Source of the DNA: Verrucomicrobiota bacterium
GTDB taxonomy: Bacteria > Verrucomicrobiota > Kiritimatiellia > RFP12 > UBA1067
DNA: 64,000 nucleotides
Assembly (NCBI GenBank): GCA_023269675.1
Contig: JAHFSX010000002.1
Coordinates: 351,319 to 415,318 of the forward strand
Reading direction: 5' to 3'
Below are positions 1-38,478 of the stretch, in pieces. Both the position numbers and the translations under genes were made by a program. Each line of letters begins with the position of its first letter. Positions within the stretch are counted from its first letter, which is position 1. A model generated the notes under the pieces. It searched no databases, was not told where the DNA came from, and saw only the letters and a list, made by a program, of their open reading frames with translations.

Positions 1-366
1 CTTCGGAATCAGGGTGCCCGCCGCCGAACAGATGCCGCACCCGATCGCCAAGCCCAGCCCCACGCCCAGATAACGGATCATCAGGCCCCAGGTCAACCCG
101 CCGAACCCCCACGCCGCGCCGCACAGGTAACAGTACCAGACCTCTTTCGACGGCGCCTGCCGGATCACGTCCAGCACGTTCGGGCACTTCGCCAAGGCCA
201 GCGCCCAGGGAGCGAGCACCAGCGCGAAAATCGCGTAGAACATCCAGTAGCTCTCCCAGGCCCAGTTCTTCTCGCGCTTGAGCGGCAGATAGAAGACCGC
301 GCCCGCCAGACCTCCCAGAACAAAGATGAGTGTGCCCAAGCCAGGATTGACAATCGAACCGTTCAT
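1..366 (-). CDS. rhaT: L-rhamnose/proton symporter RhaT, N-terminal 122 aa (partial; continues beyond window start)
   Basis: Reverse translation from ATG at 364-366 gives MNGSIVNPGLGTLIFVLGGLAGAVFYLPLKREKNWAWESYW...GAAWGFGGLTWGLMIRYLGVGLGLAIG. This matches my recollection of the RhaT N-terminus (FYAPFKKVKKWSWE ... GAMWGIGNINYGLTMRYLG). GC3-rich codons. Not in the ORF track because no stop lies inside the window. Confidence 0.7.
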   Translation of the reverse strand, partial: MNGSIVNPGLGTLIFVLGGLAGAVFYLPLKREKNWAWESYWMFYAIFALVLAPWALALAKCPNVLDVIRQAPSKEVWYCYLCGAAWGFGGLTWGLMIRYLGVGLGLAIGCGICSAAGTLIPK

Positions 367-609
367 GTGTGAGACCTCGTAACTTTCAACCGCACAACCG
401 CGCGCGGCCTACGAAAGTTTGGGTGGGATCATACGGGGTCTCTTGGCAAAAGGGAAGACGAAAAAACGGACAGGGTCTCCCTCCCCGGCGTCCCGGAAAT
501 CGCCGTCGCGCGCCCGACGCTTCAGTCAAAATCCTTGAGCAGCGAGAGTGAAGCGCTCCGAACTGAGGATCTCGCCTGACGGGGCAGTCCGCTTGCCTGA
601 TGCCGCGCA

Positions 610-1950
610 CTAGTCGGCGCCGACGATCTTGAAGAAGGCCTGTGCGCGGCCGTTCACGGGCACCCGCACCTGCGTGTGCGCCTGGCCCGCCGTGAAGGGC
701 TCCGCCGAACAGGCGGTCCAGTCCGTGGCCGTCGGCGCGCTGACCGTCTCGGTCGACCAGTGCACCAGGTCCGTGCTGACCTTGACCACATACCGGCGGC
801 TGATCTCGGTGTTGAAGGTCACCGTCAGCGTCTGCATGTTCAACTGCACAGCCTCGACGCGGAGCGACCGCACCGCCACAGCGCCACTGGAGAAGTGCAC
901 GTGCCCGGCCTCGTCCACCACCTTGAACGCGTATGCGCCGTCCGCCGACAGCCCGTCGGCACCGATCAGGTAGCGGTTGGAACCCTCGCCCACCACCTGC
1001 CCGGCGGGCACACGGCCGACCTCGACCCAGTCGTTGCCGATCCAGGCGTAAACCACGATGTCGTCAGAGCCCGACTCGTCCACCGTCCAGAGCTCGATCG
1101 TCACGCCATTCGCCGAGGCGTACACGCTGAGGTCCATCGCCGCGGAAAGCGAGAGGGGCGGGAGCAGCACCGACCACGAACTGGTGACCGGACTGGCCGA
1201 CGAGAATCCGCCCGCGATGTCATCATCGGGGGAGAGATGGTCGGTCGAATTGTTGCGGCTGCCGAACTGGAGGCGCCACTCCTGATTGGTGTTGAGCGCG
1301 GTGTTCGCCGAGAAGAACGACCACTTCACCGCGAAGTCGATAAAGGTCGTCGACCCGAAAGACGTGGTCGTCTGCGAGTCGATGGTCCGGATATAGCCAT
1401 CCCCCGTCAGGTTGAAATCGGGCGGCGCGATCTTTAACGTGTCACTGCCATCGATATCATTGAGCTGCAGATTTTTCCAACTGGCCACGGCCACCAAGTT
1501 GGTTCCCGTCATCAGTTCCAATCCGTGCTGATCCGGTTGGTTGCTTTTTGAATCCCACACCAGCGCATAGTCGGGCAGGTCCGGGGCCGCCGCCCCATTG
1601 GTGTAACCCACGCGGTCGATATAGACCCAATGTGCATCGCGGAAGGTCGTACTGGTGACATTTGACACGGCCACCCGCATGCGGATGAAGAAATATTGAG
1701 TGTCGGCGGCCCAATAAGCGCCGGGGTTCACGGTGTCCCCCACGAAATCCAGCCTCCCAACCACACCGGAATCAAGCGGGTCGTTCAGGCTCGGGATCGC
1801 CACCCAGTTCGTGGGCCAGCTCGCAAAGGTGGCCGTCGTGCTCGGATACCACATGTTGGTGACTGCGGCTGCGGCCGCTTTCGGCACGGTCAAAACCATA
1901 AACATTCCAGCCGAGACGAGGAGAGGAAAGCGGACTGACGGTAACTTCAT
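610..1950 (-). CDS. Secreted protein (signal peptide MKLPSVRFPLLVSAGMFMVLTVPKAAAAA). Unknown N-terminal domain plus a ~170 aa C-terminal module shared with the 2321..5845 gene.
   Basis: ORF 610..1992 was trimmed to the internal ATG at 1948-1950, because the codons upstream of it are rare-codon-rich. The C-terminal 175 aa are ~80% identical to the C-terminus of the neighbouring 1174 aa protein, and the DNA over 629-1135 vs 2340-2870 is near-identical. Confidence 0.6.
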   Translation of the reverse strand: MKLPSVRFPLLVSAGMFMVLTVPKAAAAAVTNMWYPSTTATFASWPTNWVAIPSLNDPLDSGVVGRLDFVGDTVNPGAYWAADTQYFFIRMRVAVSNVTSTTFRDAHWVYIDRVGYTNGAAAPDLPDYALVWDSKSNQPDQHGLELMTGTNLVAVASWKNLQLNDIDGSDTLKIAPPDFNLTGDGYIRTIDSQTTTSFGSTTFIDFAVKWSFFSANTALNTNQEWRLQFGSRNNSTDHLSPDDDIAGGFSSASPVTSSWSVLLPPLSLSAAMDLSVYASANGVTIELWTVDESGSDDIVVYAWIGNDWVEVGRVPAGQVVGEGSNRYLIGADGLSADGAYAFKVVDEAGHVHFSSGAVAVRSLRVEAVQLNMQTLTVTFNTEISRRYVVKVSTDLVHWSTETVSAPTATDWTACSAEPFTAGQAHTQVRVPVNGRAQAFFKIVGAD

Positions 1951-2100
1951 ATTTGGACTTCGAACTTTACTAAGCATTGGATAACCACACACACAGAACC
2001 TGTTTGAACATAAATGAATATATCACCATAATCAATTCTAGTCAACTACCGATATTTTTATCAAAATATCCCGGAGGGCGCCCGTTTTGCGGGTGCCCGC
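1951..2100 (-). promoter_or_regulatory. AT-rich promoter/5' region upstream of the 610..1950 gene
   Basis: Sharp drop in GC (tttggacttcgaactttactaagcattggataaccacacacacag...aatatatcaccataatcaattctag) in an otherwise ~65% GC genome, directly 5' of a minus-strand gene. No specific -10/-35 assignment attempted. Confidence 0.3.
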
Positions 2101-2320
2101 ATAGCGGATCCGGTCTAGCGCATACGCGGGATCGCCCCAGCGGAAAGTGGGAGCGATGCGGCTGGCCGGCCGCCGCGCCCCCGTTGAAACGGTGCCTGCG
2201 GGACCGGCCATGGCCGTGTCGTCTGCAGGCGGACTCGGCGTCCCGTCAGAAATGCGAAACGCCGCCAGACTGTCCTGGACGGACAACCGGGCGGCGTTCA
2301 AATGCGGAACGTCTCGATCC

Positions 2321-5300
2321 TCAGTCGACGCGGACCGCCTTAAAGAAGGCCCGCGCGCGGCCGTTCACCGGCACCCGCACCTGCGTGTGCGCCTGGCCCG
2401 CCGTGAAGGGCGCGGCCGAATAGGAGGACCAGTCCGTCGCCGTCGGCGAACTCACAAACTCGGTCGCCCAGTTCAACAGGTCCGTGCTGACCATGACCAC
2501 ATAATGGCGGTCGATCTCGGTGTTGAAGGTCACCATCAGCGTCTGCATGTCCATCCGCACCGCCTCGACGCGGATCGACTGGACCGCCACCGGCCCGTTG
2601 GAGTAGTGCACGTGCCCGGCCTCGTCAATCACCTTGAAGGCGTACGCCCCGTCCTGTGACAAACCGTCGGCAGCGATGAGGTAGCGGTTGGAGCCCTCGC
2701 CCACCACCTGCCCGGCAGGCACGCGGCCGACCTCGACCCATTCGTCGCCGATGCTGGCGTAGACCACGATGTCCTGGGAGCCCGACTCGTCCGTCGTCCA
2801 AAGCTCGATCGTCACGCCATCCGCCGAGGCGTAGAGGCTGATGTCCATCGCCGTGGAGAGCGGGGTCGTGTTCACCACGATGTAGTCGGTGGACCCGACT
2901 GTGGCGTAATGGATATAGTAGCCCGCATTGGGCGCGGGCAAGGGCGAGTTGTTCGTCAACCCGCCGAACGTGCCGACGATGCTGGCGGCGGAGGCGAGCA
3001 CGTAGTTGGTGCCGACTTCCGTGAGCGTGCCGATGTCCAGCACGGCGTCATTCAGCGTCAGCGTTCCCGTGACGTTCAGACGGTCGATGGCGTTGCCGCT
3101 GCCGACCTCAACCGCGTTCGTCGATCCGGACTCGAAGGTGACGTCACCCGCGACCGTCAGGGTCCCCACGCTGGCCCCGGGCGCGACGGTCCCGCCGCTG
3201 GCCACCGTCACGCTGTTGCTGATCGTTCCGTTTCCGCCCAGCGTCACGCCGGACCAGACCGTCAACGCGCCTGCCGACGCCACAAAACCATGCACGATCA
3301 GCTTGCCGCCTTTGTTCACCAGCAGGTCGTTGCCGTTGCCCAGCGTCAGCGTCACGCCGGTGGCCACAATGACTTTTCCACCGGCCTGCACGACCGCCTG
3401 GTCCACCGCCACATTCGCCGTCACCGTCACCATATGGTCGCTGCGGATATCGATGGCGCCGTCTGACGATGTCGGCGTGAACGGCGCCGGATACACCCAC
3501 GCCGTGCCGTTCCAGCGCTCCCACGTGGCCGTGTCGCTCCAGTCGCCGGTTTGGTGCGACTGGAAATCACCGGTGACGGGATTGACCGTCTCCTGCTGCG
3601 TTGCGCTCGTCAGGCCGCTGGCCGCGGCCGTGAGTGTCGGTGTCCCGACTTGCTGATCGTTATACCTGAAACTGGCGGTGCTTGAGCCTGTGGGAATCGT
3701 CACGCTCGTAATCGTCGTGCTGCCGGTGGCATTGTCGCGGAAGGATTTCGTCCCGGTCGAATCGCTGCTCAAGTTGACCGTGACGTCCCCCGCGGTGACG
3801 ACCGCCGGGTTACCCGCGCTGTCTTGACGCTGCACCGTCATTGTTCCCGAGGTCGTTCCGGCTGTCAGCGCGCTGCCGCCCGTGTAGGCCGCCGTCGTAA
3901 AGGCCAGCTTGGATGGCGCAGCCCCCGCAACGGTGACTTGACCTGCGCCGCTGAAGTATGTGGAGTTGTTGTTCAGCGCGCCGCTGCCGGCCCATGTTCC
4001 CGCCGCCTGCTGGACAGCGCCGAAGAACAGGCTTCCGGCGGTGCTGCCGTTCCCGGTCGGGAACGGGACTGCCACGCCGCCATTCAACGTCAGGCTGCCG
4101 GCGATCGCGATGACATTGGCAGTGTTGTGGTCGAAATCGGGATTAACTCCGGAGTCGACCACCACATTAAATAAGTGATAGGTACCGATAAGGACAAAAC
4201 CGTTACCGGCTGATCCTGCAAACTCAATCGTACCGCCTGTGCAGGTAATATTGGACGGTGTAATATTTTTGAAGTCATGCCAGATCTTTAGCGTTCCGCC
4301 GGACATGATCAGGGTCCCCGTCATCTTGAAATCACTTCCGCCGGCACTGGTCTGGCCTACGGTCACCGTTCCCCCAGAAATGAATAGGGTTCCGGCGCCA
4401 GAAATGCCTTTAGCTGAAGCAGTGGTCACTGCTCCGCCGGCAACGGTCAGGGTTCCGCTGATGGCTAAGTCCGCGCCGGTGTTGCCAGCATTGAGACTGC
4501 CTCCGTTTTCCACAACCACGGTTGTGCTTGCCGCACTGATCGTATCCGCGGACGTGCCGTTGACCGTTCCGAAAATATCCAGATCAGTGCCCGCGCCGTT
4601 GGCCACTGTCAGCGTGTTGTTGACGGTAAGTGTGGCCCCGGATTCAACGCTGAGCTGGTCCGCACTGGCAGCGGCCGCCACGGTCACGACGTTGGGGCTT
4701 CTAATGGTGATGCTGCCACTGCTGCTGTTGGGCACGCCCTCGCCCGCAGTCGGTGTCGCCCAAGCCGAACCGTTCCATCTTTGCCAAGTCGCGAGTGTGG
4801 CCCAGGTGCCGGTCGCCGCCGACCGGTAGGAATTGGCGGGCGGATTCGCGCTGATGACCACGCTGGAGAGCGTGCCGGACTTCGCATTGCTGTCGGTGGC
4901 TGAAATGTTAACGGTTTCCGCGGTAATGTCCTTGATCGTGATGGTCAGCACTCCACTTGTGAGCGTCTTGGTGTTGTCCCCATACACGCCGTCGTCGTTA
5001 CCGTCATACTGAACATTTCCGGTGCTTCCCGCCATGGCCACGGCCGTGGAGCTGTCGGTTGTCACGGTGTTGCTGAACTGGTCCAGCGCCGTCACGGTGA
5101 CCGTGAAGGCGACACCCGCATTCTGTGCCGTTGTCCCGGAAACCGCATAGTGGTCGATCGCACCGGCAACCTCCGTCAGGTTGCCGAAATTGCTGCCGCT
5201 GGAGCCGTCCGTCGAGGTGGTGATGCCCGCGGTGACCAAGCTCTGCGCTGAGCAATAGATGTGCTTTCCGGTCGCGAGCGGAGTGCCTGCGGTCGGCCGG

Positions 5301-5845
5301 ACCTGAATGGCCGTGGTTCCGCCAATAACCATAGTGTCGAGAAGGTTGTTGCTTCCGACGCTAAATGTTATCACCAAGGTCGTTGAATCGCTGAAGGCTG
5401 CACTCGCGGCCGTGATATTCCGTCCGGCCGTGTAACTGACGTTCGGCGTCTGGGCCGTGTTGAACTCATAGCCGGCCGGCACTTTCAACGTCATGGTTTG
5501 GCTGGAGCCGGTTTTGATGTCGCCATTGGCCGTTTCCGCAATCGTGATCGCACCCAGGGTCGTATAAGCGCCCGTCGCGGCGTCCGCGGAGATGCTGGTG
5601 CCACCCGACGCACCCGTAATGCTGACATTGGCGGAATTCGCCGTCCAAACGCCGGCACAGGTGAGAAGAGCCAAGAGCAGGGTGGCCGAATTCAACTGAA
5701 AGGTGTGCCCATTGCGGCCGGCGCGGGTGTTGGCGACGGCTTGCGGCGCCATACGGAGTTTCCCCCAGAGACCGCTGAGGATGGATTTCGTCGCCGGGAG
5801 GCCGCTGCCGGGCCGGATTGAATCGCGAACGTCACGAGTATTCAT
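2321..5845 (-). CDS. Giant secreted right-handed beta-helix protein (autotransporter-associated beta-strand-repeat / adhesin-like), 1174 aa. Start may be the internal ATG at 5750-5752 (MAPQAV...signal peptide).
   Basis: Thr/Gly/Ser/Asn/Val-rich repeats (GxTxxVxxG, TLTVAGG) are typical of parallel beta-helix passengers. The motif ATW(Q/E)RWNG(S/T)AW..P occurs twice, heading two homologous ~330 aa segments. A hydrophobic signal-like segment LLLALLTCAGVWTANSA is present. C-terminal module shared with the 610..1950 gene. Confidence 0.65.
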   Translation of the reverse strand: MNTRDVRDSIRPGSGLPATKSILSGLWGKLRMAPQAVANTRAGRNGHTFQLNSATLLLALLTCAGVWTANSANVSITGASGGTSISADAATGAYTTLGAITIAETANGDIKTGSSQTMTLKVPAGYEFNTAQTPNVSYTAGRNITAASAAFSDSTTLVITFSVGSNNLLDTMVIGGTTAIQVRPTAGTPLATGKHIYCSAQSLVTAGITTSTDGSSGSNFGNLTEVAGAIDHYAVSGTTAQNAGVAFTVTVTALDQFSNTVTTDSSTAVAMAGSTGNVQYDGNDDGVYGDNTKTLTSGVLTITIKDITAETVNISATDSNAKSGTLSSVVISANPPANSYRSAATGTWATLATWQRWNGSAWATPTAGEGVPNSSSGSITIRSPNVVTVAAAASADQLSVESGATLTVNNTLTVANGAGTDLDIFGTVNGTSADTISAASTTVVVENGGSLNAGNTGADLAISGTLTVAGGAVTTASAKGISGAGTLFISGGTVTVGQTSAGGSDFKMTGTLIMSGGTLKIWHDFKNITPSNITCTGGTIEFAGSAGNGFVLIGTYHLFNVVVDSGVNPDFDHNTANVIAIAGSLTLNGGVAVPFPTGNGSTAGSLFFGAVQQAAGTWAGSGALNNNSTYFSGAGQVTVAGAAPSKLAFTTAAYTGGSALTAGTTSGTMTVQRQDSAGNPAVVTAGDVTVNLSSDSTGTKSFRDNATGSTTITSVTIPTGSSTASFRYNDQQVGTPTLTAAASGLTSATQQETVNPVTGDFQSHQTGDWSDTATWERWNGTAWVYPAPFTPTSSDGAIDIRSDHMVTVTANVAVDQAVVQAGGKVIVATGVTLTLGNGNDLLVNKGGKLIVHGFVASAGALTVWSGVTLGGNGTISNSVTVASGGTVAPGASVGTLTVAGDVTFESGSTNAVEVGSGNAIDRLNVTGTLTLNDAVLDIGTLTEVGTNYVLASAASIVGTFGGLTNNSPLPAPNAGYYIHYATVGSTDYIVVNTTPLSTAMDISLYASADGVTIELWTTDESGSQDIVVYASIGDEWVEVGRVPAGQVVGEGSNRYLIAADGLSQDGAYAFKVIDEAGHVHYSNGPVAVQSIRVEAVRMDMQTLMVTFNTEIDRHYVVMVSTDLLNWATEFVSSPTATDWSSYSAAPFTAGQAHTQVRVPVNGRARAFFKAVRVD

Positions 5846-6727: not shown

Positions 6728-8761
6728 TCAGTGCAAAAGGAGCATGGCGCCGCGCTGGATGAAGAGCCAGAGATCCTCGTTCCGGTCCTGCCGCACGACA
6801 CCCGGCCCCGTGACCGTGATGTTCTCCGGAGAGAAAGCGGTGACGCGTGTGGCGCAATCCGCCAGTTTGATCCAGACGCCCCCGCCCCGGTAGTCCCGCG
6901 AGTCGACCTCCAGTTTAGCGCCCGCGTGCATTGTCAGCGCCCCGCTGGCGATCAACGTGCCGGGCCCGGACGGTCCCAATTCGAAACGCAGCGTGGACTG
7001 CGTGTTGTTGGTCAGCACGATGTCCTTGGCCGAGCAGACGCCGTTCGTCCCGATGATCAGCGTGCCGGTGCCGTTGCGCCCGACGTAGATGTTGGCGTTG
7101 GTCACCGTGAAGCTGCCGCCGTCGATCCGCAGCGTGCCGACGCTGTTGTTGGTAAAGGTGAAGAGGGCGGGACCGGGCGTGTAGCCCAGGTCGGCCGTCG
7201 TGAGCCCGCCGACGAATACGGGCCTGGCCGACACCAACGTGCCGCCCGACATCGTGTAGCTGCCGCTGCCGCCGCCCCAGCCGACCGTCATCTGGAAACA
7301 GGCCACGCCGACGTTCCCCATGCCCTGCCGCACCGCGCCGCCGGTCTGGTACACCAGGCCGGTGGCACCCCGCCCCGCACCCAGAATGAACTGCCCGGAG
7401 TTGGTCACCGTGCCGCCGCTGAAACGGACCTCGCCCCACGCAACATTACCGACATTCGTCGCCATCAGGCCCAACACGATGCCGTTCTGCTGGTCCCACT
7501 GGTTCCACATGCCGTAGCGTCCGATGTCGAGCAGTCCGCCCGAGACAGTCAGGTAGGCCCGCGCCGAACCACCCACCCCGTCGCCCCGGCTCACCAGGAC
7601 GCCGTACCCCGACGTCCTGCCGATGCTCCCCAGTTCGCCCCCGGACAGGGTGAGTTCACCCACGCCGCCTTTGCTGCCCGCCGCGCGGCAGAGCGATACG
7701 CCCGCGCCCGCGTCCACACGGCCGCCCTCGATGTTCAGCACGCCCCTGGCGTTGGAACTGTACCCTCCCACGTTCAAGCCGTCATTGCCGACCACATCCA
7801 GGACGCCATTCTCGCGTACCGTGACCGTCCCCAGCGCGTTCGCCTCGATTCCCAGCTGAAAGCGCGTGCTGCCGCGCGGCTGGCGGAAGACCGCATTGCC
7901 GGCGATCGTCACGCTGCCGGTCGCGTTGGCCGTACCGACATTGACGAAGTTGCTGACCACCAGCACCGCGTCATTGGTCAGCAGCACCGTGCCGATGCAC
8001 TGAGCACCTGCGCCGACGGAAAAACTCGACGACGAGTCGTAGTTCCAAAAACGCGCCTTGCCGCCGGTCATCTCGAAGAAGCCGCGACCCGCCGTGCCGG
8101 TGCCGATGCGCAACTGCACCATGTTGTTGCTTTCCACGCCGGCAACAGAGTAGCCTGTCAGCGCGAGCTCGCCCGAGGCGATTTCCAGCCGGCCGGTCGA
8201 GTTAAAGCCCACCCCGACATAGCTGCTGCCGGCGGTGGCCGATTCCCGTTTGAGGTTGGTGAAGTCCACCGTGCCGCCGTTCACGCGCAAGAGGCCGCCG
8301 TTCAGGATCGAGACGAACGGCCAGTTGAACGTGCGCCCCGTGTACCGCAGGACGCCGTTGCTGTGGACGACCACTTCGGAGCCGCGCCCGAAGGACAACT
8401 GGCTCAGATTGTTGCTGCTGGTGAAGTCCGGCGCGTTCACGTTCAGGCGCGTGGTGAGGCCTGCCGCCGTGCTGACATTCAGGCTGCCGAAGGGGACCGG
8501 CGTCGCATCCACCGTCGCCGAATAGGAGGCGGCCGTGTTGGTCAGGGACGCGGTGTTGGCGTTGGGCACGCCCGCCGTCCAGGCCGCGTCATTCGTCCAC
8601 ATCCCGTCGCCCGCACTGTTCCATGTGGTCTGCGCGAGGGCGGCCGAACACAGCGCGAGCAACAGCACGACGGGCAGCGCACGACAACGCAACTCGCCAC
8701 CGCATCCCCAAACAGACCCCGTCCGCAGGACCCGCTTCACAAGCATTCCACGCATTTCCAT
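6728..8761 (-). CDS. Secreted beta-helix repeat protein (autotransporter-associated beta-strand repeat family), 677 aa. Paralog of the 36619..38478 gene.
   Basis: Signal-like N-terminus (ALPVVLLLALCSAALAQTTW). Starts with the TWNSAGDGMWTNDAAWTAGVP motif, similar to SWNVGSGTWDDTTTGNWSPAQVP in the 36619 gene. Gly/Thr/Asn/Val-rich beta-helix repeats (GGTLxxxG, LTLSGG). Confidence 0.6.
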   Translation of the reverse strand: MEMRGMLVKRVLRTGSVWGCGGELRCRALPVVLLLALCSAALAQTTWNSAGDGMWTNDAAWTAGVPNANTASLTNTAASYSATVDATPVPFGSLNVSTAAGLTTRLNVNAPDFTSSNNLSQLSFGRGSEVVVHSNGVLRYTGRTFNWPFVSILNGGLLRVNGGTVDFTNLKRESATAGSSYVGVGFNSTGRLEIASGELALTGYSVAGVESNNMVQLRIGTGTAGRGFFEMTGGKARFWNYDSSSSFSVGAGAQCIGTVLLTNDAVLVVSNFVNVGTANATGSVTIAGNAVFRQPRGSTRFQLGIEANALGTVTVRENGVLDVVGNDGLNVGGYSSNARGVLNIEGGRVDAGAGVSLCRAAGSKGGVGELTLSGGELGSIGRTSGYGVLVSRGDGVGGSARAYLTVSGGLLDIGRYGMWNQWDQQNGIVLGLMATNVGNVAWGEVRFSGGTVTNSGQFILGAGRGATGLVYQTGGAVRQGMGNVGVACFQMTVGWGGGSGSYTMSGGTLVSARPVFVGGLTTADLGYTPGPALFTFTNNSVGTLRIDGGSFTVTNANIYVGRNGTGTLIIGTNGVCSAKDIVLTNNTQSTLRFELGPSGPGTLIASGALTMHAGAKLEVDSRDYRGGGVWIKLADCATRVTAFSPENITVTGPGVVRQDRNEDLWLFIQRGAMLLLH

Positions 8762-11930: not shown

Positions 11931-14441
11931 TCAGTTGATGCGAATCAGCGTCCCCAAGGCCGGCGGCGGCACGAACACGGTGAGCCGCAGGTCGTCCACC
12001 ACAACCGCCCCGTTCGTGATCGAGGGTTTTCCGACCGTGTCCGTCGTGAAAACCACCTCTGTCCGAACCCCTGTCGCGTTACCGGGCACCACGCCCGAGA
12101 CGACATGTGGCATGTACTCGTTCTTTTGATACGTCGGAAGCAACGGATTCGTGTCGTTGACGCTTCCGATCTTCGCGCTGCCATTCAACCAAAACAACTG
12201 GAACTCGACTTTCTGGCTCGTATTGGTCACGAGCGGTTCGTCGCTGTTATGCCTCACATACCCGCTGAAAGTCACCAGTTTACCCGTGAGGCTGGAGTCG
12301 TTGATGTCCTGGCATATCTTGATCGTGTTGCTCGGATTGGCTGACTGGTCGCCATTGACAGACATGCGGTAAGCGTACCCGCCTGTGCGGAACAGCCCGT
12401 TCGTCCGCAACCCCAGAAAACCGTTGGCTTCCGAGATCCAGTTGGATGCCGCCACTCCCGAGCCCCATTCGAAACCGCTGTTCGCCAGATAGCTGTCTGT
12501 ATAAGGGAACTCCCCCGACAGTGCGGCACGGTAGCTGGCGGTCGCCGGGTTCGACGCGCCCCAACGCACCCCTCTCGGTCCAAACGGATACTGCATCGCG
12601 TCGATGTTGGCCCGGATAACGGCGTAATCGCCCGGTTTCGCGCCGTTTCTATAAAGTCCGTTGAGCCATTGCTTGAACGCCGTCTCCTGAGAACCCGCGG
12701 GCGTCCAAACGGTTCCGACCGCAACCGTCTGCCCCGACGTCACGACGTTGTCAGAGATTTTAAAGGGCTGACGCCCGCTGAGAAGTAGCCGGGTATCGAC
12801 GTCATTCGTCAAGAACCACGCGTTGTTCAATGTGGGCGTCGACACGTATCCCAACCCCCACACATCGATGTTGGCGCCCGACAGCGCGCCATTGAACTCC
12901 GCTACCGTAAGCGCAAGTTTTGCGGAAGTCACCGGCTGTTCCGGCAGGGCAAAGAACGCGATGCCGTTATAGTCAATGCCCGTACCCGCCACCCCGCTAA
13001 TCAGGTCATTCGCCGTACTGGTCCCACTTAAAAAAACCGTCCCGTCTTTCACATGGCTGTAATGCTTAAACTTGCCCGCGAACACGGATTCATCCGTCAG
13101 GGTGACCGTCAGTTTCGGGCGGTACGCCGTATTAGCATGACTCGATGCGCCAAACCGGATGTTTCTTTGGTCCGTTGTGGGCATCACCGCATCCGGGTTG
13201 GTGCGGATGACGACATAATCGCCGGGCTGAGCGCCTTTCTCATACAATTCGTTGAGATAAACGGTCAGGTTGGTACGCTGCGCTGCATTCAGCTGAAACA
13301 CGTTTCCGTTGTTTGCGGCCTGATTCACGGGCACGAGGTTGTCGGCAATCTTGGTCGGTGGCGTGCTGTTGAGGAGACTCCGCGAATCGGTGTCCGCCTG
13401 CAGGAGCCAAGACGCACTCATCGAGGGCGTGCCCATGTAGCCCAGCGCCCAGACATCGATGTTGGCGTTGGTCAATGTTCCAGCCGAAGAAACCGTAAAA
13501 ATCAGGTTGCCATCCAAAATGCGGGTTGTCGGCAATTGAAAAAACGCGATGCCGTTGTACATGACGTTGCCCGCCGCGATACCGTTGATCAGATCCTGCG
13601 TGCTGAACACCCCCGACGACCCATAAATACTTCCGTCGGCAGCATGGCTGGAGATCTCAACCGTTTCGGTGTATTGATCTAAGACCGTGACCGGCGTTTC
13701 GGCAGGCGGGAGCGAGATGCCGAACTTGTTGGTGTAGGCGCCGCTCATGGCCGTGCCCAGACGAGTCAGCTCCGAGGATGTCAAATGCCACATATCCGTC
13801 CGCGTGTAACCGCGCGTGTCCGCATACGCGAACTGAGGCCCGGACCCTTGCGCGATCTGATAGGCGCGCAGATAATCGATGTCGGCGCGCGTCCGCCCTC
13901 CCGTATTGGCCGGATCGTCATAATACGGATCGGGGTTGCCGTCGATGACGGCGTAAGTGAAACGGATGTCGTTCGTCAGGCCCAGATCCCGCTTCAGCTG
14001 CGCCAACATACCGCCCACCCTGTTCGTGTAGGCGTCCATGGTGGCGGTGCTGCCGGTGTCGCTCTCGCCTTGGAACCAGAATATCCCCTTAACGACGGCC
14101 ACATCACCCGCATTGGTGATCGCGCGGATCTGCGACTGCAGGATGCCCGTGCCGGCAACGTTCCAGAAGTCGTTGCTGTAATTGACCTGCGGTTCTGTCG
14201 TGAACCACTGACTCAAAGCGTTCCCTGCATGGCCCGCGGCAGCCATCACAAGGGTCGAACCGTAACCTGCCTGCAGGCCGCCGGCGATGGCTGAGGACCA
14301 TTCGGCTTTTGCGTTCGACTGTCCGCCGGCGAAGAACACGTTCACCGTCTTGGCCTGCGCCGTTGAAAAGGCCAGCCCGACCGTCGCCACGAGCATCATG
14401 ATCATCCGCATTGCCATACCCCCTGAACTTTTAATTCGCAT
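11931..14441 (-). CDS. Secreted multidomain carbohydrate esterase: N-terminal SASA/DUF303 sialate-O-acetylesterase-like (SGNH-type) domain, then two tandem ~170 aa repeat domains and a C-terminal beta-sandwich. 836 aa.
   Basis: Signal peptide MRMIMMLVATVGLAFSTAQA. VNVFFAGGQSNAKAEW matches the GQSNM-type active-site block of SASA-family esterases. Internal repeats LINGIAAGNVMYNGIAFFQLP...NIDVWALGY...PGDYVVIRTNPDA and LISGVAGTGIDYNGIAFFALP...NIDVWGLGY...PGDYAVIRANIDA. Confidence 0.55.
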   Translation of the reverse strand: MRIKSSGGMAMRMIMMLVATVGLAFSTAQAKTVNVFFAGGQSNAKAEWSSAIAGGLQAGYGSTLVMAAAGHAGNALSQWFTTEPQVNYSNDFWNVAGTGILQSQIRAITNAGDVAVVKGIFWFQGESDTGSTATMDAYTNRVGGMLAQLKRDLGLTNDIRFTYAVIDGNPDPYYDDPANTGGRTRADIDYLRAYQIAQGSGPQFAYADTRGYTRTDMWHLTSSELTRLGTAMSGAYTNKFGISLPPAETPVTVLDQYTETVEISSHAADGSIYGSSGVFSTQDLINGIAAGNVMYNGIAFFQLPTTRILDGNLIFTVSSAGTLTNANIDVWALGYMGTPSMSASWLLQADTDSRSLLNSTPPTKIADNLVPVNQAANNGNVFQLNAAQRTNLTVYLNELYEKGAQPGDYVVIRTNPDAVMPTTDQRNIRFGASSHANTAYRPKLTVTLTDESVFAGKFKHYSHVKDGTVFLSGTSTANDLISGVAGTGIDYNGIAFFALPEQPVTSAKLALTVAEFNGALSGANIDVWGLGYVSTPTLNNAWFLTNDVDTRLLLSGRQPFKISDNVVTSGQTVAVGTVWTPAGSQETAFKQWLNGLYRNGAKPGDYAVIRANIDAMQYPFGPRGVRWGASNPATASYRAALSGEFPYTDSYLANSGFEWGSGVAASNWISEANGFLGLRTNGLFRTGGYAYRMSVNGDQSANPSNTIKICQDINDSSLTGKLVTFSGYVRHNSDEPLVTNTSQKVEFQLFWLNGSAKIGSVNDTNPLLPTYQKNEYMPHVVSGVVPGNATGVRTEVVFTTDTVGKPSITNGAVVVDDLRLTVFVPPPALGTLIRIN

Positions 14442-20645: not shown

Positions 20646-20701
20646 CTTGTGTCCACCTTCGCTTGCATGACTCAACCGGAAACCGCGCGCACGCCCGAGA
20701 A

Positions 20702-20747
20702 GGGGCGTGCCACATTCGAATGTGCCCTGCGCATCCCTGCGCAGGGG
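20702..20747. repeat. REP-like palindromic element (second copy at 31317..31360)
   Basis: ggggcgtgccacattcgaatgtgccctgcgcatccctgcgcagggg contains the perfect palindrome cacattcgaatgtg and ccctgcgca/tgcgcaggg. ~85% identical to 31317-31360. Lies between the rmlC stop and the next gene start. Confidence 0.35.
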
Positions 20748-26984: not shown

Positions 26985-27102
26985 CGAAAGTTAAACCTGA
27001 TTTTCACCACCGAGACACAAAGAGCACCCCGTTCACTGAGCCCAAACTGGGTGTCCTTTGTGTCCTTGGTGCCTTGGTGGTAAAGTATCCCGCTGGCTCC
27101 GG

Positions 27103-30996: not shown

Positions 30997-31316
30997 TTCA
31001 AGAAAGCACCCCCCCTCCGATTGTTCCCGCTCCGCTGGCGGGGGGCTTGTTCCTGAATGACGTGTGGTAATTAGCATATTTTGCCAATCCTGACAAGCCA
31101 GCGCCGACGACATAATGATCCCCTGTCTTCGCAATGTATTAGGATGTAATGACTTAAAGCTAATTTCCGACTTGCCAGTCCTGTACTGAAACGACTGCTC
31201 TTCTCAAACAGGAGCGGCCTTCTGAAGAGCTGTCCCTTGGTTTTGTCCTGAGTAACAGAAGTCGAAGCGTGTCGTCAGAAGCCGGCATGAGAACAACACC
31301 CGCACGCCCAGGGCTG

Positions 31317-31360
31317 GGCGTGCCACATCGGGGTGTGCCATGCGCATCCCTGCGCATGGG
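31317..31360. repeat. REP-like palindromic element (copy of 20702..20747)
   Basis: gggcgtgccacatcggggtgtgccatgcgcatccctgcgcatggg. Confidence 0.35.
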
Positions 31361-31414
31361 CCGCAGGCTGCCGCTGTCCGGGAAACGGACGAGTAAACCA
31401 ACGGGAACAGCTTT

Positions 31415-31496
31415 CACCGCCAAGTCACCAAGGGCACCAAGCCGCACCAAGGATCAACTTCGTGTTTCTTTGTGTCCTTTGTGCCTTAGTGGTAAA
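31415..31496 (+). promoter_or_regulatory. CACCAAG/CTTGGTG repeat unit directly upstream of the DKAAAD-repeat gene; contains a possible promoter (TTGTGT-N16-GTAAAT with TGn)
   Basis: caccaagggcaccaagccgcaccaaggatcaacttcgtgtttctttgtgtcctttgtgccttagtggtaaat, then 24 nt, an SD aaggagag and the ATG at 31531. Confidence 0.3.
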
Positions 31497-31530
31497 TGAA
31501 ATTGTGGAGTCAAATCAAACAAGGAGAGTT

Positions 31531-31869
31531 ATGAGCAAACCCGATGAAGTTGCGAAGGAAGTGATTGACCAGGCCGCCGCGGACAAGGCCGCTGCCGACC
31601 AAGCGGCAACCGACAAGGCTGCGGCGGATCAAGCCGCCGCCGACAAAACTGCCGCCGACAAATCGGCCGCTGACAAAGCCGCTGCGGATCAGGCCGCCAC
31701 CGACAAGGCTGCTGCTGACAAGGCTGCCGCCGACAAGGTCGTCGCCGACCTCACCGCCGAGAGGGACACATTCAAGACCGAGCGGGAACAACCGCGTGTT
31801 CGGCGCGGGCGACATGATCGACTACGGCGGCGTGGCCTTCGTGCGCCAGGACGACCCCTAATTTCCTAA
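31531..31869 (+). CDS. Small acidic alanine-rich repeat protein, ~14 x D-K/Q-A-A-A-D hexapeptide repeats. Apparent +1 frame change near 31790 into a well-coded C-terminus ending at 31861.
   Basis: SD aaggagag 2-4 nt before ATG 31531. Frame 0 reads MSKPDEVAKEVIDQAAADKAAADQAATDKAAADQAAADKTAADKSAADKAAADQAATDKAAADKAAADKVVADLTAERDTFKTE with GC3-rich codons. After ~31790 frame 0 switches to rare codons (cgt gtt cga cat gat cta), while frame +1 reads NNRVFGAGDMIDYGGVAFVRQDDP* with uniformly GC3 codons. Confidence 0.4.
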   Translation: MSKPDEVAKEVIDQAAADKAAADQAATDKAAADQAAADKTAADKSAADKAAADQAATDKAAADKAAADKVVADLTAERDTFKTEREQPRVRRGRHDRLRRRGLRAPGRPLIS

Positions 31870-31870
31870 C

Positions 31871-32151
31871 ATCCACCACCAAGGCACAAAGGACACAAAG
31901 CCTCACCAAGAATCAACTTCGTGTTTCTTAGTGCTCTTGGTGTCTTGGTGGTAAATCTCTCAACTCAGCATCCACCACAAAGCCAAAAAGGGCACCAAGC
32001 TTCACCAAGGATCAAACTTCGTGTTCTTAGTGTCTTCGTAACTTCGTGTTAAATCTCTCAACTCGACTTCCACCACCAAGGCACAAAGGACACCAAGTCT
32101 CACCAAGAATCAAACTTCGTGTTTCTTAGTGCTCTTGGTGTCTTGGTGGTA
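31871..32151. repeat. Three tandem ~95 bp repeat units built from CACCAAG direct repeats and CTTGGTG inverted repeats
   Basis: Unit A 31871-31960, unit B 31961-32050 (degenerate), unit C 32051-32151. Consensus tccaccaccaaggcacaaaggacac(c/a)aag.ctcaccaagaatcaa(a)cttcgtgtttcttagtgctcttggtgtcttggtggtaa. Related single copies at 31415-31496, 15240-15312 and 27030-27090. Confidence 0.6.
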
Positions 32152-32222
32152 AGAAATTCAAGGAGCGCATCATGCAGAAAATCACCGTCACGACCGTTTC
32201 GGCCGGCGTCAGCCCGCTTGGC

Positions 32223-36247: not shown

Positions 36248-36618
36248 GCGCGACGCGTGCGTGTCAGCCGCGCCCAGCCGTGCAGAATGCGGAATTAACA
36301 TTTTTCTGTCTAGCCCCCGTATGCGGTCATTTCAGTTCCCAGCGTTTTATGCCCCCAAAATAGCATAAAACAAAACCGTCCTCAATCCCCGCGTCGGGGA
36401 CAACCGCCTGATGACCGCTTGATAATCGTCAGGCCACGATAGACACGCATAGGTTAAAAACACTATACTGCCAGCATGATTAAGCGGGTGTGTTGGGTGC
36501 ACATCCGGAATTCCTGGCGGGGCTTTTCGCTCGCGTTTCTCTCACCATGGGGGTCAGCATGACAGGCGTTAATTGTGCGGAAGACAACCGTCCATCCGGA
36601 AACGTCCGGCGCAAAAGC

Positions 36619-38478
36619 ATGATGCTAGCAGCGGTCTGTGCCGTTTTCACGGGCGGAGCGGACACGTCCTTTGCGGCCGCCCCAAGCTGGAACGTGGGCA
36701 GCGGCACCTGGGACGACACGACCACCGGCAACTGGAGCCCCGCGCAGGTGCCCGTGGCCGGGGACAGCGTCACGATCAACCGCGCGGCCGCCACGACGGT
36801 CGAGTTCGCGTCGGGCAACTTCACGAGTGCGGGAACAAGTCTGCTCACGCTGACGCTGGGCGGCACGGGCGCCTCGAACGTGCTGCAGGTCGGCGCGGGC
36901 GACATTCTGTGCTTAACGAACACGTTCAACGTCAACTCCGGCGGACGCTTGGAGATGTCGGGCGGGACGATTGCGGACGCGTACACGGACTGGCGTGACA
37001 GCCTCAAGGTCAATAACGGCGCCAGCGCCAGCGTGACGGGGGGCACGTACCAGCTCCAGCGGTACGGCCATGTCTATGTGGCGGACACCGCCGGTCACAC
37101 GGCGAGCCTCATTGTGAGCGGGACGGGCAAGCTGGTGGCACCCACCGCCGTGAACCAGACCGGTGCCGACCTGAACGCCAGGAGAGGCAACAGCACGGTG
37201 ACGGTGTCGGAGAACGGCGAGCTCAGCATCTGGCGCAACATTTACGTCGGCACGGTCAGCGGCACGCACACGTGGACGGTCTCCGGCGGCACCCTGCGCG
37301 AACAGTTCGGCGACCAGGCGTATGCGGGCTTTGTGCTGGGCGGCGGTTCGGGATCCGTGACGCTGACGCAGACCGGCGGAACCGTCGACGCGCGTATGCT
37401 CAACGTCGCCAGCAACAGCGTCTATCAGCTCGACGGCGGCAAGCTGACCGGCGGCACCGTCAACATCAAGGGCGGGGAGATGAACGTGACGGCAGGGCTC
37501 GTCGACCTCCAGTATGACGTCGGCCCCGGAAACACGAGCGGCACCGTCAGCCGCCTGAACATCAGCGGCGGGTCGATCTCCAACCGGTACTTCTTGGTGG
37601 GGCAGTCGCCGAGCGGCTCCGGATACGGCACGCCAGGCGGCCGCGCCGTTGTTCACCAGACAGGCGGCGAGGTCGTCATCAAAGGCGGGGCGTTTGCCGT
37701 CGGACACTCCAACAACCTCTCGCAGGTCTCGGAGTACATTTGGGAGGGAGGGCAATTCGGAACCAAGGATGGGGCATGGCCTTACTGGTATATCGAGCCG
37801 GGCTCCAGTTTCCGGGGACGCGGCAAGCCAACGCCCGATCATGCCGCTTACGGCAATCTGAGAATGAGCGGCCGGGTGATCGCCGACGGTTTCAACACCG
37901 AGACGAACCTGGACCTGTCGAACTTGCGCGACCTCTTCAACGACATCGACAACCCCAGCGACGGCACCAACGGCTGGTACGCCGTGCGCGGCGGCAAACT
38001 GATCCTGAGCACGTACTATTCGGTCAACGGCAACGCGACCGGCGTCTGGGGCGAGGCGCAAGGGCAGGTGCCCGTGCAGGACAACGACCTCGACCTGGTG
38101 AACAGCGCGCGCATCATCTTCACCGGCGCCGCATACCACAAGCTGGGCGGCGCCCTGTTCGCCTCCGACCGGTCGGACGTCCCGTCCGGCCTTGTGCGCC
38201 CCATCGGAGTCTGGCAGCTCTCCTCCGGCAGTTTCACCGATGCGACCGTCACCTTCCGGTATGACCATGGCACGCTGGCCGCCCAGGGCCTCCCTGAAAA
38301 CGCGATCAGGCTGCGGCGACACACCGGAACGGCTTGGGAAAAGGTGACGGGGTCGCAGGATCTGGCCAAGCACTGGCTGACCTCGACGGTGCTGCTGCCG
38401 CTGGGCAGCGGGCAAGGCTACCTCGGCATTTTCGCGATTGATGTGCCTCGCACGGGAACAATGGTGACCATTCTATGA
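36619..38478 (+). CDS. Secreted beta-helix repeat protein (autotransporter-associated beta-strand repeat family), 619 aa. Paralog of 6728..8761.
   Basis: Start at ATG 36619 (MMLAAVCAVFTGGADTSFAAAPSW signal peptide). SWNVGSGTWDDTTTGNWSPAQVP start motif. Gly/Thr-rich beta-helix repeats. The stop overlaps the start of the next gene (ATGA at 38475-38478). Confidence 0.6.
   Translation: MMLAAVCAVFTGGADTSFAAAPSWNVGSGTWDDTTTGNWSPAQVPVAGDSVTINRAAATTVEFASGNFTSAGTSLLTLTLGGTGASNVLQVGAGDILCLTNTFNVNSGGRLEMSGGTIADAYTDWRDSLKVNNGASASVTGGTYQLQRYGHVYVADTAGHTASLIVSGTGKLVAPTAVNQTGADLNARRGNSTVTVSENGELSIWRNIYVGTVSGTHTWTVSGGTLREQFGDQAYAGFVLGGGSGSVTLTQTGGTVDARMLNVASNSVYQLDGGKLTGGTVNIKGGEMNVTAGLVDLQYDVGPGNTSGTVSRLNISGGSISNRYFLVGQSPSGSGYGTPGGRAVVHQTGGEVVIKGGAFAVGHSNNLSQVSEYIWEGGQFGTKDGAWPYWYIEPGSSFRGRGKPTPDHAAYGNLRMSGRVIADGFNTETNLDLSNLRDLFNDIDNPSDGTNGWYAVRGGKLILSTYYSVNGNATGVWGEAQGQVPVQDNDLDLVNSARIIFTGAAYHKLGGALFASDRSDVPSGLVRPIGVWQLSSGSFTDATVTFRYDHGTLAAQGLPENAIRLRRHTGTAWEKVTGSQDLAKHWLTSTVLLPLGSGQGYLGIFAIDVPRTGTMVTIL

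Follow-up and report, generated by a model that had tools for sequence, protein, structure and literature searches.

Why would two neighbouring bacterial genes with quite different products end in the same 176 residues? The question is raised by a 64-kb stretch of DNA, hereafter the window (contig JAHFSX010000002.1, positions 351,319 to 415,318), from a Verrucomicrobiota bacterium of the class Kiritimatiellia, where gene A and gene B, co-directional neighbours in the first 6 kb, encode secreted-type proteins with a common C-terminal module. The original prediction, made from the sequence alone, took this module for a sorting, anchoring or secretion-targeting domain, or else for the constant part of a cassette-exchange system. 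From the comparisons presented below, the module is a family absent from Pfam, NCBIfam, the PDB and the searched literature, and we consider it, with a probability of roughly 0.55, to be a new C-terminal sorting or cell-surface retention/anchoring domain of Kiritimatiellia and related bacteria of the Planctomycetes-Verrucomicrobia-Chlamydiae (PVC) group. As a general kind, C-terminal sorting or anchoring domains are already well known; what has no description in the sources just named is the family itself, together with its architecture of two domains and its taxonomic distribution.

The module shared by genes A and B

Gene A corresponds to the open reading frame (ORF) at 610-1992 on the minus strand, for which the ATG at 1950 was retained as start (610..1950, 446 aa) because the orthologues P0043 and P0159 agree with it; P0157 (NCBI/ENA) corresponds to this protein with 100% identity but is annotated with a shorter start. 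It consists of a signal peptide (MKLPSVRFPLLVSAGMFMVLTVPKAAA/AAV), a body of ~255 aa and unknown fold (the A-body) and the module. Gene B (2321-5845, minus strand) encodes a secreted giant of 1174 aa, the start of which is possibly M32 at 5752, with Ig-like and beta-helix, autotransporter-passenger-like regions ahead of the module. Between residues 810 and 958 it has a likeness to the passenger of the EprS autotransporter (NCBIfam, E=1.8e-17, which is far under the family cut-off), and its passenger matches PATR (autotransporter-associated repeat) proteins. Read directly from the sequence, the N-termini of gene A (MKLPSVRFPLLVSAGMFMVLTVPKAAA) and gene B (...NSATLLLALLTCAGVWTANSA) are both signal-peptide-like.

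Module copy A (613..1140, minus strand, 176 aa), delimited by BLASTP, DNA alignment and hidden Markov model (HMM) comparison, is made of subdomain 1 (856-1140), a linker and subdomain 2 (613-843), and runs up to the stop codon of the gene at 610-612 (...RVPVNGRAQAFFKIVGAD-stop). Module copy B (2324..2851, minus strand, 176 aa) has the same layout, with subdomain 1 at 2567-2851, a linker and subdomain 2 at 2324-2554, and likewise abuts the stop codon at 2321-2323 (...RVPVNGRARAFFKAVRVD-stop); its upper end at 2851 places the limit of 2870 proposed beforehand ~19 nt too far. The two copies align without a gap at 79.5% protein identity (140/176, BLASTP E=2e-94), so that the ~80% initially estimated over ~175 aa was accurate. 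Outside the module no BLASTP segment was found between A and B at E<0.1 and the N-terminal bodies are therefore unrelated, as had been stated. At the DNA level, homology starts a few bases from the codons of the 'PLSxAMD' motif and stops at the stop codon, with unalignable flanks on either side. Near nucleotide identity and recent homogenisation, which were part of the same proposal, turned out to be overstated: the modules are 86% identical in DNA (73 differences over 528 nt), with synonymous and nonsynonymous divergences of 0.26 (dS) and 0.12 (dN), i.e. a dN/dS of 0.48. A recent gene-conversion tract between them was rejected, since the longest exact run of 42 nt is unexceptional at 86% identity (permutation P=0.11). 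By tblastn, no third copy is present in the 64 kb of the window.

Regarding the fold, the AlphaFold2 model of the whole module, computed from an 11-sequence alignment, contains strands only (pLDDT 89) and resolves into two beta-sandwich subdomains, residues 1-95 and 100-176, on either side of a low-confidence linker (96-99), in support of the two sandwiches anticipated at first reading; modelled alone, subdomain 2 reaches a pLDDT of 92 and a pTM of 0.80. The predicted strands are 3-9 residues long and form two soluble sandwiches, with no outer-membrane barrel. Subdomain 1 is acidic and fibronectin type III (FN3)-like, with a median isoelectric point (pI) of 4.5, and subdomain 2 is basic in most family members (median pI 8.3), that of module B being neutral (pI 7.0). 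The terminal strand of subdomain 2 is conserved as ...R-V-P-x-N-x-[RK]-A-F-F-K-I-V-x-x-[ED]-COOH; A ends with ...AFFKIVGAD and B with ...AFFKAVRVD, with zero residues beyond the profile match.

In genes A and B, the module has no match in Pfam or NCBIfam (June 2026 release) at E<=1, nor did ten diverse modules give anything at threshold in Pfam or a PDB sequence search any match. FN3-type weak matches nonetheless recur over residues ~45-85 of subdomain 1 in five of these ten modules (E 0.003-0.11), the best fn3 match (PF00041) having an E-value of 0.097 and 13.3 bits against a gathering threshold of 25, and Pur_ac_phosph_N (PF16656) reaching at most 18.5 bits against a gathering threshold of 30; thus, subdomain 1 resembles FN3 at the fold level only. 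In subdomain 2, weak matches to CBM_35_2 remain below threshold as well (E 0.02-0.085).

The module family, its carriers and its exchange with PEP-CTERM

When 1.84 billion representatives were searched with the module profile, 178 matches came out, of which 58 had E<1e-30; 156 of the proteins were retrieved and re-scored locally. A word-indexed search returned only 9 relatives, with the module C-terminal in all 9. Among the 156 proteins, 124 have a single match ending at most 30 aa from the C-terminus, 28 are weak multi-stretch hits corresponding to generic Ig/FN3 repeat proteins and 4 are, by appearance, fragments or frameshifted tails; a strictly C-terminal module is therefore found in 124 of the 128 proteins that contain one copy. 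In the set of 87 distinct full-module proteins, which includes the module-bearing A-body homologues from a separate A-body search, every full-length match ends 0-6 aa from the C-terminus; [FYM][FY][KR] occurs within the last 14 aa in 86 of them and the final residue is Glu or Asp in 58. An N-terminus resembling a signal peptide was recognised in 60 of the 71 full-module proteins starting with Met, using a heuristic. Gene A matches the module profile at E=4.3e-94 (positions 1-175) and gene B at E=4.5e-94 (positions 1-176); these two values hold by construction because both sequences are in the seed alignment, and it is the 58 database proteins at E<1e-30 that give the family independent support.

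The carriers span ~250 to 3565 aa and their passengers comprise SdrD_B, GEVED, PATR, lectin-like and carboxypeptidase-regulatory-like repeats, the A-body and a second body of ~220 aa. All named sources are PVC, namely Kiritimatiellia or Kiritimatiellae metagenome-assembled genomes (MAGs), one "Lentisphaeraceae" MAG and one "Verrucomicrobia" MAG; one member carries an NCBI name based solely on its GEVED domain. Orthologues 62-72% identical to the window's proteins, together with a gene content high in GC and rich in glycan degradation, likewise make it very probable that the window comes from a member of Kiritimatiellia. With only two copies in the window, and these adjacent, a private local duplication or a chance, generic similarity of the Ig/FN3 type could have been envisaged. 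Both are refuted: many metagenomes and MAGs together supply 87 distinct proteins with the full-length module, invariably at the C-terminus, and the profile search gave 124 single-copy C-terminal carriers; moreover, A and B show no relationship in their bodies, and the gene A orthologues all bear the module. As a two-domain unit, the module is not a generic Ig/FN3 domain found at random positions, although each subdomain taken separately still belongs to a generic beta-sandwich class.

The most informative result comes from a search with the A-body, i.e. gene A from the signal peptide to the module junction, which retrieved 50 homologues. About 30 of them (419-461 aa) bear the module, three in a divergent variant ending with ...GFF[KR]I. 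About 17 others (194-319 aa), which align over 82-98% of the body with 36-51% identity, end in a PEP-CTERM-type tail, that is [VI]PEP[SA] followed by a hydrophobic (transmembrane) helix and an Arg cluster, located 4-10 residues past the conserved "...AGGxSxxSxxxxxWS" motif. TIGR02595 scores at or above its cut-off in five of the ten A-body homologues tested (P0182-P0185, P0190), and a precomputed PF07589 match exists for P0184 and P0190. The same body is therefore joined, at the same point, to either of two ends. In the window itself, genes A and B give no TIGR02595 or PF07589 hit at E<=1 (NCBIfam, Pfam), and none of the ORFs has a [VI]PEP tail.

Relatives of the gene B passenger are just as varied at their C-termini. 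P0223, P0227 and P0240 have a PEP-CTERM end, P0212 ends in an autotransporter barrel (PF03797), and others terminate in a domain of ~75 aa, "...RFYRLxxP", for which neither Pfam nor NCBIfam gave a match. Aligned end to end with subdomain 2, this FYRL domain reaches an hhalign probability of 93% (E=3e-7). On the evidence of this profile alignment, the C-terminal FYRL domain of PVC PATR proteins is homologous to subdomain 2.

Besides the A-type proteins, a second family of small (~400 aa) module proteins possesses its own body of ~220 aa ('...G[TS]MIVFEG[EQ]L...') without Pfam match (P0037, P0055, P0059, P0063, P0064, P0066, P0067, P0070 and P0072; loci L030-L032). A relationship between this body and the A-body was considered and rejected (hhalign probability 0.9%).

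Some copies of the module stand nearly alone. An orphan gene of 213 aa (P0002) consists of the module and ~36 N-terminal residues without signal peptide, and genes of this type lie at 657-1298 of L003, 526-1167 of L004/L005, 592-1299 of L008 and 264-971 of L024. They sit between two opposite-strand genes, in several metagenomes (one labelled wastewater) and in one Kiritimatiellae MAG, and look like 5'-truncated remnants of a module gene. In L002, an in-frame TGA (2631-2633) separates a passenger of at least 876 aa from a complete module (...MGTTQ*EPLNFGF...), and the P0004 gene is in frame with an adhesin gene 30 nt upstream; a pseudogene or an assembly error is the probable explanation of these arrangements. 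A conserved in-frame stop or readthrough as a general feature was rejected, P0006 and P0008 being merely cut by contig ends.

Likeness within genomes, gene neighbourhoods and possible roles

The modules do not evolve with the bodies that they terminate. Some 25 orthologues of gene A are known here (437-461 aa), and for 24 of them the identity to gene A is 64-72% in the body and only 43-60.5% in the module; the nearest relative of module A is module B, at 79.5%, in the unrelated gene next door. The bodies of orthologues are more alike than their modules, so that the modules are homogenised within a genome. In keeping with this, A-type modules are polyphyletic, a neighbour-joining tree dispersing them over at least four groups, the giants of L006/L007 (MAG CAYMLQ01) are 94% identical in the module vs. 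~52% in the preceding 740 aa, and the modules of the adjacent pair in L019 are 79% identical. Modules are thus swapped or converted among paralogues inside genomes and diverge fast between genomes, a pattern that would be expected, without being proof, if every copy had to fit one lineage-specific partner.

Cassette exchange or antigenic variation, in which variable passengers would be recombined onto a constant expressed anchor, has the following in its favour: the module, constant, at the 3' end and sharply delimited in its homology, would offer a target for recombination, unrelated genes of one genome have evidently exchanged their modules, and orphan module-only genes of the P0002 type exist. 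Nevertheless, the orphan copies are fragments of the constant part and no silent variable cassettes were found; 86% DNA identity, the longest exact run being 42 nt, makes a poor substrate for frequent homologous exchange, and the window harbours no invertase or recombinase, inverted copies or silent-copy arrays. Moreover, both genes of the window have signal peptides of their own, and the intergenic region between B and A (1951..2320, minus strand, 370 nt) contains, ahead of gene A, two matches to sigma-70-like promoters, at 2064-2035 and 2045-2017; with six such sites found vs. 1.3 expected in the scanned region, a count of consensus matches alone, gene A probably has a promoter of its own. 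This second proposal of the original prediction is accordingly regarded as very improbable.

The adjacent, co-directional pairs of module genes, encountered in the window, L001, L019 and L021, suit another explanation, namely an assembly or oligomerisation domain, whereby the modules of different proteins would bind each other into a mixed surface fibre or layer and homogenisation would keep them compatible. The high similarity of modules within genomes and the coexistence of giants with small conserved module proteins (the A-type and the second family of ~400 aa) go in the same direction, and the contrast between an acidic subdomain 1 and a basic subdomain 2 (pI 4.5 vs. 8.3) could favour head-to-tail contacts. 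Most loci with an A-type orthologue (L010, L015, L018), however, are without a second module gene within 10 kb, two pairs (L021, L009/L011) have diverged modules (45-52%) and the equivalence with PEP-CTERM is left unexplained by assembly alone. We hold this explanation to be unlikely, though clearly less so than cassette exchange.

Clustering of all ORFs from 34 loci uncovered no partner gene recurring beside the module genes, and the cognate sortase or outer-membrane partner envisaged at the outset was accordingly not found next to them. What recurs is lineage-specific synteny and common genes (histidine kinases, GFO/IDH oxidoreductases). No type IX secretion system (T9SS) machinery (SprA/Sov, PorV, PorU and others) was seen among the window ORFs scanned with Pfam, nor any Por-like gene in the 64 kb plus flanks. 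The neighbourhoods of A-type orthologues differ from one another except for a RhaT-like rhamnose-proton symporter gene directly downstream of the module gene in three loci: the window, where it is truncated (1..408, minus strand, downstream of gene A and outside the module, recognised by BLAST clustering with L010:10830-11972), L010 (10830-11972, which matches PF06379 RhaT) and L020 (3159-4304). Rhamnosidases (GH78, GH106) lie near the loci of RhaT-like and module genes, which hints at a context of rhamnose-containing-glycan utilisation for the A-type protein.

More generally, the neighbourhoods are rich in glycan-degrading genes (rhamnosidases, SASA esterase, RhaT). Combined with the lack of sorting machinery in the 34 loci, with FN3-like and small beta-sandwich folds typical of binding modules and with the weak CBM_35_2 matches of subdomain 2, this would suit a ligand-binding domain, adhesive or carbohydrate-binding, at the distal end of adhesins and devoid of any sorting role, export being ensured for instance by the type II secretion system that Kiritimatiella possesses (PMC5148204). 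A binding module, on the other hand, would have no need to occupy the extreme C-terminus of 124 out of 128 single-copy proteins or to keep its final strand 0-6 aa from the end; its exchange at the same junction with PEP-CTERM, a purely sorting signal, is not expected, and homogenisation within genomes together with rapid divergence between them would be unusual for a common external ligand. Among the alternatives, this one is the most serious, and we still consider it improbable.

The sorting, anchoring or secretion role put forward originally fits all the indirect tests, i.e. the terminal position, the passengers with signal peptides and the swap with PEP-CTERM; the function itself is what we infer from them. 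In the mechanism that would follow, the signal peptide, read from the sequence, would first carry the protein across the inner membrane, which is the standard function of signal peptides in export. The folded module would then be recognised by a common lineage-specific partner, possibly a component of the outer membrane or of the secretion apparatus, or else a surface glycan, for instance lipopolysaccharide (LPS), that would bring the passenger to the surface or keep it there, a role played by PEP-CTERM/exosortase for homologous proteins elsewhere. Finally, gene conversion or module replacement would keep paralogous modules alike, with fast divergence between genomes, presumably because the paralogues must fit one partner and module genes frequently lie next to each other. 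In a more specific version, the module would be the recognition domain of a folded C-terminal domain (CTD) pathway, T9SS-like but unrelated and with machinery of its own, which would replace exosortase/PEP-CTERM, and the FYRL domain would be its ancestral form; this version is advanced as a tentative possibility.

Several observations weigh against a sorting or anchoring domain. Apart from the absence of a recurring partner gene, the module has no profile similarity to any described sorting domain in Pfam or NCBIfam, none being matched at threshold, and in Foldseek comparisons with the PDB the whole module resembles generic tandem-Ig proteins only (TM ~0.3); subdomain 2 has no match below E=0.3 and no T9SS CTD among its hits. 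The generic beta-sandwich classes of the two subdomains also form internal repeats elsewhere, as in the 28 weak multi-stretch hits. Two pairs on the same contig are not homogenised (45% identity in L021, 52% in L009/L011), the dN/dS between modules A and B indicates only moderate constraint, and the strictly terminal position could itself reflect recombination of 3' gene ends.

In PVC bacteria outside Chlamydiae, the export and retention of giant adhesin-like and glycan-degrading surface proteins are poorly understood and, to our knowledge, PEP-CTERM/exosortase is the sole widely annotated C-terminal signal. A search of the literature gave no paper joining Kiritimatiell* with PEP-CTERM and nothing relevant on a sorting domain in Kiritimatiellota. 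Against this background, the module offers a testable handle, as its 176 aa can be fused to reporters and its profile used to find cognate machinery, and the occurrence of one body with either PEP-CTERM or the module provides a natural comparison. Several hundred "hypothetical" proteins of Kiritimatiellia would become probable surface proteins upon annotation and, if the module is indeed a sorting or anchoring domain, its homogenisation within genomes would be a clear case of concerted evolution in such a domain.

Elsewhere in the window, Rfam and tRNA scans found nothing. Intergenic, imperfect hairpin repeats of ~80 nt with arms CCACCACCAAGGCACAAAGGACAC...GTGTCYTTGGTGYCTTGGTGGTAA occur on the plus strand at ~26990-27086, 31405-31497, 31868-31956, ~31965-32055 and 32060-32154, three of them in tandem with a spacing of ~98 nt. 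Without Rfam match, they have predicted RNA folds of -34 to -35 kcal/mol (z -3.5 to -5.7; four copies, that at ~31965-32055 excluded) and could be REP-like (repetitive extragenic palindromic) elements, terminators or small RNAs. Between them, a small ORF (31532-31861, plus strand) has a product that is mostly (D[KQ]AAA)n, encoded by a 15-nt tandem repeat in 11 copies (31537-31776). A GC-rich repeat of 60 nt, 82% identical between its two intergenic copies at 20688-20747 and 31301-31360, 10.6 kb apart, contains internal palindromes (CGCACGCCC...GGGCGTGCC; TGCGCATCCCTGCGCA). Three large, probably secreted proteins have short tails that resemble one another, in which hydrophobic residues come after G-[AT]-[ML], and are encoded at 6728-8761 (minus strand, ...RGAMLLLH), 11931-14441 (minus strand, ...LGTLIRIN) and 36490-38478 (plus strand, ...TGTMVTIL); the first contains a T5SS/PEP-CTERM-associated repeat without PEP-CTERM. 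These tails may represent another C-terminal motif or merely a common last beta-strand.

Comparison with known systems

The classical autotransporters (type V secretion system, T5SS; PF03797) have a C-terminal barrel of 12 strands, for which A and B gave no PF03797 hit, and gene B is like them in its passenger only. As for PF00041 and PF16656, the segment of subdomain 1 that matches them weakly (~45-85) has the pattern '...GL-x-x-G-x-x-Y-x-F-K-V-x-D-E-x-G', and distant multi-repeat FN3/Ig proteins were among the weak hits; the scores are nevertheless 13-18 bits against thresholds of 25-30 and the likeness spans half of one subdomain.

The FYRL domain of PVC PATR proteins ('...S-T-x-L...W...RFYRLxxP'; P0231, P0234, P0241) has in common with subdomain 2 the 'Y-x-V-x-x-S-T-D-L-x-x-W' region and the FF[KR]/FYR strand and, in the examples seen, occupies the extreme C-terminus like the module. 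It differs in being a single domain without the FN3-like subdomain 1, in ending with Pro instead of Asp/Glu and in an identity of ~14%. Being absent from Pfam and NCBIfam, it gives no functional annotation.

In the Sap S-layer proteins of Campylobacter fetus and the Hop/Bab proteins of Helicobacter pylori, a conserved anchoring end is kept alike by recombination. As in the module family, a constant region for envelope attachment is found on paralogues with differing exposed regions, and paralogues within a genome are closer to each other in the constant region than orthologues are. Yet the conserved region of Sap is N-terminal, nearly identical in DNA and subject to programmed inversion, that of Hop is a beta-barrel, and the module is 86% identical in DNA with no switching machinery evident.

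The T9SS is known from Bacteroidota and the Fibrobacteres-Chlorobi-Bacteroidetes (FCB) group and, as far as we know, is not known from PVC. Its CTDs (type A, TIGR04183/PF18962; type B, TIGR04131) are folded Ig-like beta-sandwiches at an obligate extreme C-terminus on Sec-exported cargo of otherwise unrelated kinds, and their last strand is conserved and includes a Lys; the module has all of these features, and as folded sorting domains the CTDs are its best functional analogue. Unlike them, the module is about twice as large and made of two domains, and no CTD model matched A and B (Pfam, NCBIfam) or the ten diverse modules (Pfam, E<=10).

PEP-CTERM (TIGR02595, PF07589), for its part, shares with the module the extreme C-terminus a few residues past the end of the A-body on homologous Sec-exported proteins, as well as an occurrence on PATR-type PVC passengers and on multiple paralogues with diverse passengers. 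By its nature it is quite different, being a tag of ~25 aa that combines the PEP motif with a transmembrane helix and an Arg cluster and is processed by exosortase, whereas the module is a soluble two-domain beta fold of 176 aa that contains neither PEP motif, helix nor Arg cluster. Belonging to neither of these last two families, the module is, in the best-supported reading, a parallel to PEP-CTERM in function and to the T9SS CTD in architecture.

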